From the IMG/VR virus record IMGVR_UViG_3300025751_000081, positions 1-32,516 of that record: a DNA stretch of 32,516 nt; one strand, 5' to 3'. The position numbers were made by a program, and so were the translations under genes. The notes below the pieces were generated by a model that made no database searches, had not been told where the DNA came from, and saw only the letters and a list, made by a program, of their open reading frames with translations. The first letter of the stretch is position 1, and each line of letters begins with the position of its first letter. Below, one piece after another: positions 1 through 32,516 of this stretch. Origin of the DNA: a virus (taxonomy: Duplodnaviria > Caudoviricetes).

Positions 1-210
1 CCTTCAGTTAAATCACTTGTTGATTTTGAACTTAAATCTAAATTAGCACCTGTTTGTAAATTAACTCTGGCATCTGCTCTTGCATCTGTGTAGTAAAGAT
101 TTGTACCTTCAGTTAAATCACTTGTTGATTTTGAACTTAAATCTAAATTAGCACCTGTTTGTAAATTAACTCTGGCATCTGCTCTTGCATCTGTGTAGTA
201 AAGATTTGTA
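1..210. repeat. Two exact tandem 105-bp repeats (35 aa: [35 protein letters not shown])
   Basis: 1-105 is identical to 106-210 by direct reading. Confidence 0.95.
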
Positions 211-3200
211 CCCTCTGTTAAATCTGTTGTGGTTTTGCCTGAAAATGCTGTGTCAAATCTTGTGCTTGTATAGTATAAGTTTGTAGTTCCTTCACTAACA
301 TCATCTGTAGTTTTGGTTGCTAATCTTGTGTCAAAATCTGTGTTTGCTCTTGCAGTTGTGTAGTAAAGGTTTGTGCTACCTTCTGCTAAATCATCTGTGG
401 TGTTGTTGCTTAAATCATCTTCTGTAGGTGTTGTCCAACTTAAAACACCACTGCCATTAGTTGTTAATACCTGTCCATTTGTACCGTCACTGGTTGGATA
501 TTTGATGCCATTTAATTCAACACCTGCATCACAAATTGCATACACACTAGCTGAGCTTACTGTGGTGCTTGCCGCATCAGCAAGTTTGCCCCAAAGTTTA
601 CTAAGCAAAATTTGATTTGGATACACACTGGTTGCACCTGTAACACTGCCTGTGATTGTGTTTGCTAAAACACCTTGATCCCAAGTACCTGTCAAATTAC
701 CAACCATAATAGATGATAAACCAGGTTGTTCTAAAATTTCTGCTGTGGCTCCTGTGTTGGCTTGTGTAATAGTTTCGCCAACGGAAAATGTTTGATTTGC
801 ATTTAATCTAAATTCCCAACATTTGCTGTCAAGTGTTGTAATTAAATCTGCACCACTAACACCTGCACCTGCTACTTTAATGCCAGCACCTAATGGCATT
901 GGGTCGTTGCCTATTTGCTCGTGTCCTCCAAAACCGCCACTCCATACTAAATTGGTTGTGCTGTAATCATCAATATCATAGTTACCTAAATATACAAAAT
1001 TACTGCCACTTGATATTGATGCATTAGCAGTCATTTCTAAATCACCACCATTAAATGGTTGTATTTTGATATTGTCCTGCGGATTGCCTGGTAAAATAAT
1101 TTGATTTATGTCTTTGGTTGTTTGTTCATATGAATGATTTTGATCAATATTTTCTCTACCAATAGTAGTTGTTGTGGTTAGATATAAATCACCACCTGCT
1201 CTACTATCTGGTGCTCCCGCAGAAATATATTTTTTATTACTGCCTGGCTCAATAGGTGCTCCATAATCACCACCAATCCAAATTCTGCCCCATTTGTTTA
1301 ATCTATTATAAATTCCGTTATCATTATTAAATTCAATATTTTCATAGGTCCAACTGCCTGTTTCATCTTTAAAATTTGGATATGTTGTTAAAAATACATC
1401 ACCACCAAATTCTTTTTGTGAATTTGTTCCGTCTTGTGCAGATGTTCCGATTTCTATAAATGGATGCCTTTTTTGTTCTTCAACACCGCTAGCATTGGTT
1501 ACTTTTTTTGTAGTAAAGTTGCCAGTAATTGTTGTTGGAACAAATGTGTGATCTGCACTAGTTGTTGATGTAGTATTTTTAATTCCAATACCATTGTTAA
1601 AATTTCCATAAGTAAGTGTTTGATCATCAGTAACTACAAAATATGTTGTTTCATTTTGATTTGCTTGTCCAATTTCTGGCACAGTGTAGGTGTGTATGAT
1701 GCCATTGTTTTGACTGCTACCATCACCACCATATACAATTTTAGGAGCACCATAAGTAGGATCCCCCCAAGTTATACCAGCGCCTGATGTGTATGTTTGT
1801 AGTTCTAAATTTTGTGATTTTAAATCACCATATGTTTTTAAGTTTTGTATACTAGGACTACCGCTTGTACTTAATTCAACATCACCTAGTATACGAAGAC
1901 CACCATTTGTATGTAAAATAAGTTCACCATTGGTTTCTTTAATTATACTATCACTAGAACCGCTGTATATTTCTACATTGCCAACATGTAAATCAGTAAC
2001 TGCTGAGTTTTGTCCAATTGCAACACCATCAATTGTGCCACCATTAATATCAACAGTGCTAAATGTTTGAGTGCCTGTAAATGTATTGTTGGCTGTAGTA
2101 ACAGCATAATTTTGTGTAGAATGGTCACCCCATCCATAAGCAGTGTCCCATTGACCAACTTTTGTGTCAGTGATTGTATTAGTGCCCATGTCAATGTTGT
2201 TGCCATTAGCATCCAATGTTCCGCCTAATTGTGGTGTTGTGTCAAAAACTAAATCAGTTGTAACATCAGCAAAACTTAATTGTCCTGCACCATCTGTTTT
2301 TAATATTTGATTTGCGGTACCATCTGCTTGTGGCCATTTTATTCCATCAATAATTACTTCACCTGATGTGTTGTCTGGATTTAATTCTAAATCATCAGTT
2401 TTAAGTACTATGTTTGCACCGCTGCCATTTGCTTGTAAAATTTGTAATATAGCACCACTGTTTCTATTAACAATTGATCTTGTGTTAGTGTCATTTTTAC
2501 CTAGCAAAATTTGAGGAGCATCTAAATAAACTTTATCACCACTAGCCCAAATATCAGTGGTTGCTTGTAATAGTATTTCTCTGCTTGAAACTAAGTCAAT
2601 GTCATCTGTTGCTCCGCCGCCTGTTGATACAATTGAAGCTCCATTAACATCCAAATCCCCGCCAAGTTGTGGTGTTGTGTCCTCTACTACATTGTTAATT
2701 GATACTGCCTGTGCCGCTGTTTGTGCTCTTGCATCTGTGTAATATAAATTTGTTTGTTCAGGTATAACAGAAGTGTTAATTGGATTTACACCACTGGTGT
2801 TCAACATTGTAGAGTCTACGCCGCTGGCACTTATGTTTAGTGTCAATCTACCAAGTGTGTCATTGTAAGTGCCATCTATACCATCGCCAGCATATATGGT
2901 GTCTGCAATTTCATCTTCAACTCTTTCTGCTGTGTAGTATAAATTTGTGCTTCCTTCTGCTAGATCATCTGTGGTTTTGGTTGCAAGTCTTGTGTCAAAA
3001 TCTGCATTTGAAAAATTATCGTCATCAGCAACTGCCCAATTTGAACCGTTGTATTTTAAAATTTTGTCTGTGGCTACACCTGTGGTGTCAACATCTGTTA
3101 AATCATTTAGTGATGATGCTGTGGTAGATGCTGTTACATCACCGTCTGCATCAAAAGCCAAATATTTGTTTGCTCTTGTGGTTTTGTTAGGAATTGTAAG

Positions 3201-3851
3201 GCTAACACTTATGTCACCATTTGAATAAAAACTGTCGCTGTCTGTTGCATCAATTCTAATACTTTGCTCTCTTACACGCTTGTTGTCTCTTGATACAATG
3301 TTGATGTTGTCAAATTCTTCATTAAATGTTGATGCACTAATTGTGCCACCATTTGAAAAATCTGTTGTTCTAGTTGGTGTTCTGTCACTGATAATAAGAA
3401 TGCTACCACTTGCTGGTGCTGTTCTAAATGCAACTGTGCCTGTGGATGCTGTGCCGTCAACAGTGTCATTTATTTCATATGCAGTGCCGCCGCCTGTGAA
3501 AGAAACTGTTGGGGATGTAGTATATCCTGTGCCGCTAGCGGTAACTGTGATAGATGTTACTGCACCTCCACTTATTGTTGCCGTTGCTGTAGCGCCACTA
3601 CCACCACCCCCTGACAATACCACTGTTGGTGCTACTGTATAATTGGTACCTGCTGTGCCTACTGCAATGCTTGTTACTGCGCCTGCAGACACAGTTGCTA
3701 TTGCTGTGGCTTTTGTACCTTGTGTTTGTAGCGTGGTATCGTTGTAAACTTTTAGATCACTGGTATTCATAATCTCAAAACTGAATGGAAAATCAGTGGT
3801 TGAGTTATTTGCTGTGTATTTTATGCGTGGTGTTGTGTTTGAAACTGCCAT
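1..3851 (-). CDS. Tail fibre protein, N-terminal part (T7 gp17-like N-terminal domain); runs off the left edge and continues at 32497..31456
   Basis: Not in the ORF track because it runs off the edge. ATG at 3851 with [34 protein letters not shown]...[21 protein letters not shown] is a typical podovirus fibre adaptor. Contains NLYYTDARA and DTTPQLGG repeats. Frame spot-checked open at 3851-3280, 960-1020 and 1-210. Confidence 0.9.
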
Positions 3852-3872
3852 ATTCTATATAATCCTCGTAAG

Positions 3873-31240: not shown

Positions 31241-31446
31241 TAAATTATTGCTTGTACTAATAAAACAACAACACTAATCAACACACCTACTAATGTTGAA
31301 AATGTCCACCACTGTGTTTTTTTAAGATTAGTAACATCATCTTGTATATGTTTGAGGTGGTTGTTGGCAATTATTTCTAATTTGGTATCTAACTTGGCTA
31401 CATGTATTTCAACTAGTGTTAATCTGTCTTGTTCTTTTTGTTCCAT
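31240..31446 (-). CDS. Small coiled-coil plus C-terminal TM protein (XhlA/holin-like)
   Basis: 68 aa after the tail fibre; IANNHLKHIQ coiled coil then WWTFSTLVGVLISVVVLLV. Confidence 0.65.
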   Translation of the reverse strand: MEQKEQDRLTLVEIHVAKLDTKLEIIANNHLKHIQDDVTNLKKTQWWTFSTLVGVLISVVVLLVQAII

Positions 31447-31455
31447 TGTTTATCT

Positions 31456-32516
31456 CTAATGCAAGTCTACCCAAGCACCGTTGGCATAACCTCTAAACTT
31501 GTTGGTTGTGGTGTTGTAATACATCTGTCCATTTGCCAAGTTTGAACTTGGATCAGCACTTGCTGAATAAAGTTGGAACACTCCGCCTGTTGAAACTATT
31601 TCCGTGCCAGCATCAACTTTCAATACATCATTGTTGGTGTCACCATTGACTACGAAATCAACATCCTCATTGTCTGGATTGACGATGACCTGTTCGCCTC
31701 GCATGTCCAAAACTCTGACCATTGTCGTGCTGTCATCTGGTGTAGCATACCATTCTAGGTGTGTGCCCAGTGCTCCGTTGGCATGTTGTTGTGATGCTTT
31801 GGCTAAAAACTTACCTGGTGTTTTGAAGTAGTTGCCCGCCTGTTCATCATATGGTGAAAAGTAAAATCCACCTACGATATCGCCACTGGCACAATAGGCA
31901 TCACTGCCATCCGCACCACTTCTCGCAAACCATACATTACCAAATTTGCCATTGTCACTGACACCTGAGGCATTTTGTGATTTCAATACCAGTGCTGGGA
32001 AACTGTCGTGTGTCGCCGTTACCTGTATACCTGCATTGTATAATAGGCTGTGATCTGCCGTGTCCGTGCCCTGTTTTACTGATATCGCCGTGTTGAAATG
32101 TGCCACTCCACCACCCCAACCCCATTCGCCCTGCGGGCCAAAGTTGCCAGTTGCTGAAGTTTGATCTGGTTTGATAACCATGTCAGCATCTGATGTTGTA
32201 ATAATCTTGTTGCCATTTACATCCAAATCTCCACCAAGTTGTGGGGTTGTGTCCTCTACTACATTGTTGATTGAAACTGCTTGTGCTCTTGCATCAGTAT
32301 AATATAAATTTGTACTACCTTCTGTTAAGTCGTCTGTGGTTTTTGTTGCTAATCTTGTGTCAAATCTACTATCTGTATAATATAAATTAGTTCCTTCAGT
32401 TAAATCACTTGTTGATTTTGAACTTAAATCTAAATTAGCACCTGTTTGTAAATTAACTCTGGCATCTGCTCTTGCATCTGTGTAGTAAAGATTTGTTCCT
32501 TCAGTTAAATCACTTG
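31456..32516 (-). CDS. Tail fibre protein, C-terminal part (same gene as 1..3851 across the circular junction; about 1630 aa if joined on the 19-nt overlap)
   Basis: Frame is open from 32516 to the stop at 31456 and is in register with the left-end ORF (GAA codon at 5 and at 32502). Ends ...GQMYYNTTTNKFRGYANGAWVDLH, a common fibre-tip motif. Confidence 0.88.
   Translation of the reverse strand, partial: SDLTEGTNLYYTDARADARVNLQTGANLDLSSKSTSDLTEGTNLYYTDSRFDTRLATKTTDDLTEGSTNLYYTDARAQAVSINNVVEDTTPQLGGDLDVNGNKIITTSDADMVIKPDQTSATGNFGPQGEWGWGGGVAHFNTAISVKQGTDTADHSLLYNAGIQVTATHDSFPALVLKSQNASGVSDNGKFGNVWFARSGADGSDAYCASGDIVGGFYFSPYDEQAGNYFKTPGKFLAKASQQHANGALGTHLEWYATPDDSTTMVRVLDMRGEQVIVNPDNEDVDFVVNGDTNNDVLKVDAGTEIVSTGGVFQLYSASADPSSNLANGQMYYNTTTNKFRGYANGAWVDLH
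32393..32516. repeat. Third copy of the 105-bp repeat (one synonymous difference) plus 19 nt identical to window positions 1-19
   Basis: 32393-32497 matches 1-105 except the last base (t vs a); 32498-32516 equals 1-19. Confidence 0.93.

Follow-up and report, generated by a model that had tools for sequence, protein, structure and literature searches.

A small virus with its own virion as a candidate SAR11 satellite switched on by the late sigma factor of a jumbo phage

How could a virus that encodes its entire particle be transcribed, copied and released when the genes usually devoted to these tasks are not recognised in it? This question is raised by the 32,516-nt stretch of viral DNA analysed here (the window). 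PHROGs, Pfam and a tRNA call bore out the podovirus virion and packaging set, integrase and tRNA of a preliminary description: genes were assigned for fibre, three large internal virion proteins, nozzle, adaptor, capsid, scaffold, portal, TerL, integrase and a tRNA-Thr(TGT) (Table 1). No polymerase, primase, helicase, SSB, sigma, repressor or endolysin family was matched by 36 window ORFs in PHROGs and Pfam, nor were the same replication, transcription and lysis families matched by 19 window ORFs in NCBIfam. The preliminary list of unrecognised functions was thus not contradicted. A holin-like gene can be added to the description, at 31240-31446 (phrog_689, E = 0.003, and 7.5e-6 for a relative's copy). 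A DnaA domain, exonuclease, Xre repressor and M15 peptidase were likewise unmatched in the window (PHROGs, Pfam, NCBIfam) and in the non-structural ORFs of relatives. The fold check suggested earlier for the 185-aa ORF at 19277 gave a helical bundle that matched neither sigma nor HTH nor Rep folds; the 153-, 123-, 84-, 63- and 179-aa ORFs were assigned to no family. Among 73 non-structural ORFs of 7 relatives, no replicase or primase was matched except for one weak HUH Rep-like ORF in a prophage from a single-cell genome (SAG; PF23343, E = 6e-4, below cut-off), given which some family members may initiate their own replication. The two ends of the window share a 124-nt overlap (1 mismatch), which falls in a 105-nt tandem repeat within the fibre gene. 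As their joining yields a single open fibre ORF of 1595 aa, and as the holin-fibre-internal protein adjacency is kept in relatives, the closed circle described previously is likely real, with an uncertain number of repeats at the join.

Table 1. Positions of predicted genes and sites in the window.
Feature	Position	Strand	Remarks
Tail fibre, N-terminal part	3..3851	-	continues through end overlap into 31456-32514
Four internal virion/ejection proteins (199, 950, 837, 944 aa)	3876..12670	-	in 7/7 near-complete members
Tail nozzle (phrog_376) and adaptor (phrog_394)	12693..15418	-	PHROGs
Major capsid protein (PF19821, E 7e-50)	15475..16350	-	28-31% identity to HTVC010P-type capsids
ATAAATA	16528..16534	-	177 nt upstream of capsid gene
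Overlapping divergent ATAAATA pair	17382..17393	.	before 153-aa ORF (-) and HNH nuclease (+)
HNH endonuclease	17416..17751	+	34 loci matched among those searched
Sigma70-like promoter (11/12, TG)	18671..18699	+	upstream of 123/185/84-aa cluster
Three ORFs, 123/185/84-aa cluster	18833..20085	+	ATAAATA before 18833, ATAAGTA before 19277
Scaffold, 80-aa, 154-aa, portal, two small head genes	20642..24319	-	ATAAATA at 24404, 22144, 20639
Terminase large subunit and probable small subunit	24410..26236	-	ATAAATA at 26345
2OG-Fe(II) oxygenase	26306..26893	+	ATAAGTA upstream; true start probably downstream of 26306
Sigma70-like promoter (10/12)	27381..27409	+	upstream of tRNA
tRNA-Thr(TGT), likely replacement tRNA	27458..27533	+	
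Predicted attP core ACATTTGTAA	27607..27616	+	invariant in 9/9 aligned sequences; matches tRNA-Thr(TGT) anticodon loop
Tyrosine integrase	27724..28887	+	PHROGs, NCBIfam
Glycosyltransferase-like gene and 85-aa ORF	28884..30131	-	ATAAATA 5 nt before glycosyltransferase ATG
RNase H1-fold protein	30181..30726	+	first catalytic Asp absent; in 5/7 near-complete members
Holin-like 68-aa ORF, then 179-aa ORF without assignment	30701..31446	-	
Tail fibre, C-terminal part	31456..32514	-	

The abundance of the heptamer ATAAATA in the window is ordinary (12 copies for a shuffle mean of 8.9, with 23 of 100 shuffles reaching 12), but its placement is not. Eleven of the 12 copies precede the start of a gene in the same orientation by 5-177 nt, and 10 of the 12 fall at gene boundaries, as against 17% for 20 permuted heptamers (p = 2e-6). 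Although TAA is part of the motif, 6 of 9 boundary matches do not serve as stop codons. The capsid, portal, terminase and fibre units each have it at their start, but no exact copy was found within 200 nt of the tRNA, the integrase, an 87/70-aa pair, the adaptor or the holin, so that the earlier statement that almost all operons start at ATAAATA was somewhat too broad.

Conservation in relatives, a check suggested in the preliminary description, was also observed: in 44 of 49 family loci, which include many near-copies, but in none of 9 outgroup rows, ATAAATA stands ahead of the capsid gene at a distance of 156-192 nt. In the 7 near-complete members it falls at gene boundaries in 10/12, 8/9, 13/14, 5/7, 8/11, 9/11 and 5/6 cases (p from 2e-2 to 3e-8), and within the genes of family members it is depleted to 0.06-0.38 of the permutation median. 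The same pattern was found in G006, a 307-kb gp55-encoding jumbo phage (56/77 at boundaries, in-gene ratio 0.17), and in the SAR11 phage HTVC008M (24/45, ratio 0.28); it was absent from the autonomous pelagiphages HTVC010P (10/34), HTVC028P (7/30) and EXVC031P (5/21) and from the SAR11 chromosome (15/150, 10/82). These data bear on a first alternative, an autonomous temperate SAR11 phage, similar to subgroup II of the HTVC010P-type phages, that relies on its host for replication. Its ATAAATA sites would be recognised by the host's RNA polymerase, helped by a small unrecognised phage activator or by a host factor. Neither a DNA nor an RNA polymerase is encoded by HTVC010P-type phages, whose subgroup II integrates at SAR11 tRNAs (PMC8477408, in part), and the sigma70-like promoter ahead of the three-gene cluster, the ORFs without assignment and a prophage-bearing SAG in which no gp55 or gp23 was matched would suit such a phage. 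We nevertheless consider it unlikely. Whereas the motif is shared throughout the family, the genes common to all 7 near-complete members are confined to virion and packaging functions, and thus a universal element-encoded activator was not found. Neither host DNA nor the three autonomous phages show the pattern, the DnaA domain, exonuclease, repressor and peptidase mentioned above are unmatched, and the motif with its flanks, the tRNA, accessory genes and codon use all fit a gp55 jumbo phage, as detailed below.

A T at position -1, which characterises the T4/HTVC008M-type late promoter TATAAATA(G), precedes 1 of 12 copies in the window (the only strict T4 form, TATAAATA) and 9 of 58 in the family, compared with 15/56 in G006 and 14/24 in HTVC008M; a G at +7 follows 1/58, 6/56 and 18/24 in the family, G006 and HTVC008M, respectively. 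Judged by their flanks, the motifs fit the jumbo form of RaK2/PA5oct-like phages (NATAAATA, followed by AT-rich sequence) and not the T4/HTVC008M form TATAAATAG. As in RaK2/GAP32/CBB-like phages, ATAAATA starts structural units, is depleted in genes and is AT-rich downstream; in the RaK2-like phage CBB, 35 such sites, each trailed by AT-rich sequence, are reported to precede structural genes (PMC5259590, in part). The core of the earlier proposal, an element with its own virion that borrows late transcription from a gp55 phage, is supported, but the flanks point to a jumbo helper in place of a T4-like one. In its scheme of gp55, gp33 and gp45, the activation step by the latter two may not apply, as gp33 and gp45 are reported undetected in the matching jumbo group (transcription passage of PMC5259590).

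G006, whose nearest relatives are PA5oct, Atu_ph07 and RaK2, encodes the late sigma (phrog_12791, E = 3e-75) together with a DNA polymerase, clamp loader, helicase, primase, SSB and endolysin, and has homologues of the glycosyltransferase-like gene (30%, E = 1e-33) and of the 85-aa ORF (32%, E = 2e-6) of the window. The window tRNA-Thr is identical over 76/76 nt in four large phage contigs (L036, L037, L041, L042) and over 75/76 in L038-L040; these include jumbo contigs, and L037 is 97.5% identical to HTVC008M. It has no exact match in the GTDB collection, and its best match in 151 Pelagibacteraceae genomes is 91%; a second tRNA-Thr allele was seen only in element relatives, and not in large phages. 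In codon use, which partly reflects GC content, the SAG prophage is at a distance of 2.09 from G006 and 3.55 from its own host, the reverse of HTVC010P-type phages (1.3-2.5 to SAR11, 3.6-4.4 to G006). The DnaK of jumbo contig L036 scores best with SAR11 (986 bits), by a small margin over other sampled Alphaproteobacteria (up to 964). Since phrog_12791 matched none of 401 Pelagibacteraceae genomes, no such jumbo phage is directly tied to SAR11, nor did any cell yield element and helper together.

The SAG prophage, a relative with 56% capsid identity, lies on contig G011:C6 of a Pelagibacteraceae single-cell genome, where it interrupts the host tRNA-Lys at the anticodon loop and carries a full replacement tRNA. 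At this site, 6 of 6 relatives examined have an intact tRNA-Lys; the junction is of one end only, in a Lys-clade relative, and the integrase was not found in that assembly. A tRNA-Thr adjoins every Thr-clade integrase locus with that flank, as tRNA-Lys does in G003 and the SAG prophage. The window tRNA is best read as a replacement for a broken host tRNA and not as an attachment site. Of the junctions that the earlier description proposed to look for, with large-phage or bacterial DNA, it is the bacterial (SAR11) one that was found, in this one relative; none was found for the Thr clade of the window. A second alternative places the integrated element in the jumbo genome itself, at the identical tRNA-Thr, so that it would be carried along by its helper, like Sputnik 2 in Lentille virus. 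Both the tRNA identity with large phage contigs but not with sampled bacteria, and the anticodon loop of the jumbo tRNA-Thr, which equals the predicted core, would agree with it. It is very improbable, however, as large phage contigs carry 0 of 49 capsid loci and 0 of 15 integrase rows, no junction was found in viral contigs, the sole integrated relative found sits in a bacterial chromosome, and the SAR11 tRNA-Thr(TGT) genes compared have an identical loop as well.

Taken together, motif placement, family conservation, negative controls, the shared tRNA, shared genes and codon use support an element with its own virion that would borrow late transcription from a gp55 phage. We infer the borrowing of replisome and lysis only from the absence of matches, one relative having the weak HUH Rep-like gene. 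The element is, in our analysis, probably a satellite virus that resides in the chromosome, is activated by the late sigma of a jumbo phage and works like mavirus. For this small temperate podovirus-like virus, the likely course is integration at the tRNA-Thr anticodon loop of a SAR11-type chromosome, substitution of its own tRNA for the broken host one, and then silence, until infection of the cell by a gp55-encoding jumbo phage switches the ATAAATA promoters on. Host sigma70 would keep only the tRNA, the integrase and a small cluster on, and a repressor would not be needed because the activating sigma is missing. Host core RNA polymerase with the jumbo late sigma would then transcribe the virion genes, the helper replisome would copy the excised circle and helper lysis would release the particles, so that the element likely multiplies at the expense of the jumbo phage, presumably a RaK2/PA5oct/Atu_ph07-like SAR11 phage of ~300-350 kb. 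A third alternative, a facultative parasite spreading alone at a low level (sigma70 read-through, own holin, own Rep in some members) and strongly amplified by a gp55 phage, would draw on the sigma70-like sites, the holin-like gene, the Rep-like ORF of the SAG prophage and the lack of the motif at adaptor and holin. We hold it to be quite unlikely: sigma70-like sites number 38 in the window, below the shuffle mean of 54, no endolysin or replicase is matched there, and the capsid, portal, terminase and fibre units are all motif-led.

Should the satellite interpretation be true, possession of a complete virion would not prevent a tailed phage from being, in its transcription, an obligate parasite of another phage; "complete" 30-kb marine viral genomes may therefore hide satellites, which a 7-nt promoter test could find. 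It would also provide a bacterial parallel to mavirus, a lysogeny switch without repressor and a new control on the mortality of SAR11, the ocean's commonest bacteria. One might speculate, with less than even confidence, that such bacterial "provirophages" are widespread: repressor-free SAR11 prophages held by a replacement tRNA, gated solely by a jumbo late sigma, which make their own virions, cut the jumbo yield (e.g. by the late-promoter-driven HNH nuclease), provide a mavirus-like population defence and reveal an uncultured SAR11 jumbo phage.

Among known satellites, P4, PICI, cf-PICI and PLE are chromosomal, integrase-bearing and activated by helper infection, PLE responding to a lytic phage. 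Replicases are among their own genes, and structural parts come from the helper (PMC10690885, in part). The gene content of the window family is the reverse: its full virion set, including nozzle, adaptor and fibre, and the absence of a primase or Rep match in the window set it apart from them. The preliminary view that known satellites take structural parts from the helper is true of these four, but own-capsid satellites (MulchRoom, MiniFlayer, Ando, Phanie) had already been described (PMC10690885 and PMC13587820, in part), and a true satellite phage dependent on a helper myophage is another described system. In its own capsid, portal and terminase the window agrees with such satellite viruses. 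The Streptomyces satellites MulchRoom and MiniFlayer (PMC10690885, in part) and Ando (PMC13587820, in part) resemble it in having their own capsid and packaging genes, an HNH nuclease and a composition closer to helper than to host; they lack a primase or replicase, for which no match was obtained in the window ORFs searched. MulchRoom and Ando also have a tyrosine integrase or integrase, as in the window, and virulent helpers. They form a 15-17 kb class, of which Ando and MulchRoom need the tail of their helper (PMC13587820, in part), whereas the window family has a full podoviral tail and ejection set, no HTH regulator found, a SAR11-type host and a proposed coupling through the helper's late promoter. 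Neither PMC10690885 nor PMC13587820 uses the word "promoter" anywhere in its main text.

HTVC010P-type pelagiphages have the closest cultured capsids, a similar size and a similar virion gene order, but they need no partner to propagate, lack a tRNA of their own, rebuild the host tRNA by means of a 40-bp core and share an exodeoxyribonuclease, with a DnaA domain and a peptidase (M15) endolysin in most of them (PMC8477408, in part). The window, with its tRNA, no exodeoxyribonuclease match and a capsid on a long separate branch, is not one of them. As in actinobacteriophage tRNA-dependent lysogeny (PMC10865867, in part), a tyrosine integrase, a short core, a host tRNA that is not rebuilt and a full same-isotype phage tRNA beside the site come together; the short core and unrestored host tRNA were found in the SAG relative and are only predicted for the window. 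Unlike the phages of that source, as far as it covers them, the family is of Alphaproteobacteria, has Thr and Lys versions, and shares one replacement allele with lytic jumbo and T4-like phages.

Virophages (Lavidaviridae) have eukaryotic hosts and a double jelly-roll capsid. The PF19821 capsid, phage portal and terminase exclude the window from that family, and the comparison with mavirus is one of working only. Mavirus of Cafeteria also has its own virion, a helper late promoter before its genes and host-genome integration; its reactivation, predicted to occur through the giant virus late transcription factor, and its inhibition of the helper have been shown (PMC6723459, in part). The present element differs in its bacterial host, its HK97-type tailed virion and its tyrosine integrase acting at a tRNA, and is unrelated by descent to the virophage that it would work like.

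The gene calls bear out the complete virion and packaging set, the integrase and the tRNA of the preliminary description: the window, an entire virus record of 32,516 bp, has genes for a fibre, four internal virion proteins, nozzle, adaptor, capsid, scaffold, portal and terminase. Besides these it carries a tRNA-Thr(TGT), a tyrosine integrase, an HNH nuclease, a 2OG oxygenase, a holin-like ORF and a glycosyltransferase-like protein. The two ends share a 124-nt overlap with a single mismatch in a fibre repeat, and the fibre is open over 1595 aa once they are joined. Even the closest cultured relatives are remote, with terminase identity below 30%, and the capsid is 28-31% identical to those of HTVC010P-type phages. 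The polymerase, primase, helicase, SSB, sigma, repressor and endolysin families, likewise claimed to be absent, found no match in profile scans of 36 window ORFs, or in 19 window ORFs compared with NCBIfam; the 837-aa internal protein gave a weak match (E 9e-6) to a family that includes an endolysin domain.

Virion and packaging genes alone are common to all seven near-complete members of the family, the most widespread non-structural genes occurring in five of the seven. Scans of 73 non-structural ORFs, drawn from seven relatives, brought up neither a repressor nor any sigma, polymerase, primase or helicase. A self-sufficient phage whose activator has escaped recognition could have such a gene content, as HTVC010P-type phages have no polymerases, yet grow alone (PMC8477408). 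We consider this unlikely here. The ORFs singled out earlier as possible sigma factors, activators or initiators yielded no such fold, 18833 and 19831 having been examined by HMM scans only. The one replication-like candidate is a weakly matching Rep-like ORF in the prophage of a single-cell genome (SAG), adjoining its replacement tRNA-Lys. A facultative parasite is an improbable description of the element.

Coordinates of features in the window and in related contigs
Feature	Location	Strand	Observation
tRNA-Thr(TGT) slot	27458-27533		Four alleles among close relatives, including L044, L082 and L083 (0, 7, 11, 17 mismatches; anticodon loop kept)
ACATTTGTAA	27607-27616		Equals tRNA-Thr(TGT) anticodon loop; invariant in 9/9 aligned sequences (integrase identity as low as 52%)
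Break	27600-27629		In run contigs; fits a strain variant
Capsid leader	16351-16534	-	~180 nt from ATAAATA to capsid gene, length constant family-wide; short conserved blocks (GATAAC...GCC, ACAATTC); no consensus fold found; possible protein-binding or translational control site
ATAAATA after scaffold stop	20639 (region 20086-20641)	-	Conserved; followed by a hairpin and, ~60 nt beyond, a terminator-like hairpin; no Rfam match for the region; possible small non-coding late RNA
Glycosyltransferase; 63-aa ORF	30137; 17748		Motif or variant 5 nt ahead of ATG, a spacing that would give leaderless mRNAs
Non-coding stretch, 881 nt	17952-18832		AT skew changes sign; short direct repeats; candidate replication origin
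ORF	16904		Protein atlas returned nothing
ORF, 185 aa	19277		Helical bundle (best Z 6.0, among helical bundles); no informative match; 15 unnamed relatives, no Pfam family
ORF	30181		RNase H1 fold (Foldseek E 6e-7), first catalytic Asp missing
ORF	30701		Atlas matches below 0.9 only
Contigs in RNA run X16	scaffold-portal; 19288-19604		DNA carry-over possible; uncovered parts uninformative
Rep-like ORF, SAG prophage	L129:6244-6624		126 aa, HUH motif, weak PF23343 match
DnaK and a further ORF, jumbo-phage contig L036	L036:3788-7097		DnaK closest to SAR11; ORF resembles RNA polymerase omega (by eye)
tRNA-Thr, HTVC008M-like strain	L037:62-137		Precise tRNA-length insertion directly after tmRNA; HTVC008M type strain (~145,410) lacks the tRNA

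The 12 copies of ATAAATA in the window are no more than expected by chance, and their number by itself was dropped as evidence. The claim that almost all operons start at this motif stands in so far as 11 of the 12 are followed, after 5-177 nt, by a co-oriented gene; the remaining copy comes after the scaffold stop and points into non-coding DNA. No exact copy precedes the tRNA, the integrase, the 87/70-aa pair, the adaptor or the holin, and the promoter form that had been proposed, TATAAATA, occurs only once. One-mismatch variants are found upstream of the 185-aa, 2OG, RNase H-like and 63-aa ORFs, and sigma70-like sites upstream of the tRNA and the 123-aa cluster.

Compared with its 20 permutations, and with ORFs taken from a simple custom caller, the motif is enriched at gene boundaries and depleted inside genes in all seven near-complete members (boundary copies: window 10/12, G001 8/9, G002 13/14, G003 5/7, G014 8/11, G015 9/11, SAG prophage 5/6). 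The same holds for G006, a jumbo-phage contig of the candidate helper type (56/77), and for the SAR11 T4-like myovirus HTVC008M (24/45), and there is no such pattern in the autonomous pelagiphages HTVC010P (10/34), HTVC028P (7/30) and EXVC031P (5/21) or in 200 kb of SAR11 chromosome (15/150, 10/82). The conservation among relatives that had been proposed as a check is also evident ahead of the capsid gene, where the motif lies at 156-192 nt in 44 of the 49 family loci whose upstream DNA extends to 269 nt or more (capsids 44-100% identical; seven loci with short upstream DNA or an incomplete gene were left out) and in 0 of 9 outgroup rows, one further row having no capsid ORF. Many of the 49 loci are near-copies, and the motif-positive loci are spread over all three main clades in the tree. 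A stop-codon artefact was ruled out, as most boundary matches are not stops and none of the TAA-ending ORFs of three control phages carries the motif. An archaeal TATA box was rejected because at several sites a Shine-Dalgarno-like purine run separates the motif from the ATG, and because one ATG is only 5 nt away.

A capsid scan of GTDB returned four loci, of which three are in mixed bins and the fourth is the SAG prophage, on a contig of 35,373 bp from a single-cell genome of the Pelagibacteraceae. Along this contig the element genes are followed by a complete tRNA-Lys(TTT), some 280 nt and the 5' half of the host tRNA-Lys, which stops at the anticodon loop; next come tgt, a PPIase-like gene, coaD, gyrA, ssb and uvrA, all identified by sequence. 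The integration site is an intact tRNA-Lys in 6 of 6 relatives examined, and the free relative G003 has a matching CTTTTAAG between integrase and tRNA-Lys. The full tRNA was tried as attachment core and has no exact bacterial match; an anticodon-loop core was adopted instead. The layout is that of tRNA-dependent lysogeny as described in PMC10865867. One end of the prophage is represented, the opposite end being missing from the assembly, and a true family member is present in only 1 of 401 Pelagibacteraceae genomes. The search for junctions succeeded for a Lys-clade relative joined to bacterial DNA but not for the Thr clade of the window, whose left junction has no match in viral contigs or in 401 Pelagibacterales genomes; no junction was found in contigs of four runs, and a single right-junction match (L185) is due to chance. 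Integration into the helper genome is a further reading; beside the bacterial junction, we regard it as highly improbable. Loose ends at L039-type jumbo tRNA flanks in runs X4, X5 and X7 were left uncounted for want of a negative control.

Neither gp55 nor gp23 has a match in the element-bearing single-cell genome, which fits a silent prophage and gives no evidence of co-infection; the gp55 of bin G013 and the gp23 fragments of bin G012 were discounted because these bins are mixed. Two relatives, G002 (L065-L066) and G015 (L132-L133), are 93-94% complete, and neither an integrase nor a tRNA lies in what was assembled of them; they are possibly non-integrating members. Family contigs L085, L086 and L087 were binned in GTDB genomes labelled Flavobacterium and Acholeplasmataceae, and one begins with a tRNA-Lys piece identical to that of SAR11, so that they look like mis-binned phage contigs. 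HTVC010P-type capsid genes in four Pelagibacteraceae genomes (L148-L151, in G266, G093, G260 and G267) probably belong to ordinary prophages.

Of 11 viral stretches that match a 35-nt piece of the tRNA, three belong to the element family and eight do not. The window tRNA is found at 76/76 in L036, L037, L041 and L042, at 75/76 in L038-L040 and at 71/76 in L032; the same 76-nt gene lies in several unrelated phage genomes with differing flanks, as if it were a mobile unit. L042 is within the 306,714-bp G006, which encodes a late sigma (phrog_12791, E 3e-75; nearest relatives in PA5oct, Atu_ph07 and RaK2) as well as a polymerase, clamp loader, helicase, primase, SSB, gp23-type capsid and endolysin, and has genes in common with L036 and G008/G009. 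L037 is 97.5% identical to HTVC008M, from which its tmRNA tag differs. The bases flanking the family motif resemble those of G006, not HTVC008M. In the RaK2-like phage CBB, ATAAATA with an AT-rich downstream stretch precedes structural genes at 35 sites, and this account of the promoters gives gp33 and gp45 as not detected (PMC5259590). The element and G006 also share a glycosyltransferase-like gene, an 85-aa ORF, a 79-aa ORF family and fibre repeats. Codon distances, to which GC content contributes, are smaller to G006 than to the own host for the SAG prophage (2.09 versus 3.55) and than to SAR11 for the window (2.89 versus 3.89-4.43), and the codon use of autonomous pelagiphages is close to SAR11.

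Against the jumbo link, a second tRNA-Thr allele is seen only in element relatives, no GTDB sequence is identical to the 76-nt tRNA (best identity 91% among 151 Pelagibacteraceae genomes), and phrog_12791 has matches in 0 of 401 Pelagibacteraceae genomes. SAR11 gives the best score for the DnaK of L036, with a narrow lead, and this contig is a candidate uncultured SAR11 jumbo phage. The PRPP synthetase of G006 had no named matches that would point to a host, and its clamp gave no significant alignment with HTVC008M gp45. The unpublished genomes G083 and G666 contribute one row each to the 151-genome tRNA, 401-genome junction and DnaK tallies, and no claim depends on either alone.

We think it probable that this is a resident element of SAR11-type cells whose virion genes await the late sigma of a jumbo phage. 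The element would enter such a cell in its own particle and integrate at the tRNA anticodon loop, the sigma70-driven replacement tRNA keeping the cell alive. A repressor would be unnecessary, because the virion genes would wait for a sigma that the host lacks. Infection by the putative helper, perhaps of the G006 type, would then supply the late sigma acting at the ATAAATA promoters and probably also replication and lysis, and might be harmed thereby. The observations behind this picture are the gene content, the placement of the motif, the tRNA held in common and a single integration; use of the promoters, the identity of the helper, replication, lysis and harm to the helper are deduced from them.

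Satellite viruses of bacteria that encode their own capsid are already known, as in the descriptions of MulchRoom and MiniFlayer (PMC10690885) and of Ando and Phanie (PMC13587820), and mavirus is described as sharing the late promoters of its helper and integrating into the host (PMC6723459). We found no report of a full-virion phage or satellite gated by helper gp55-type promoters in the literature searched, most subscription papers lying outside it.
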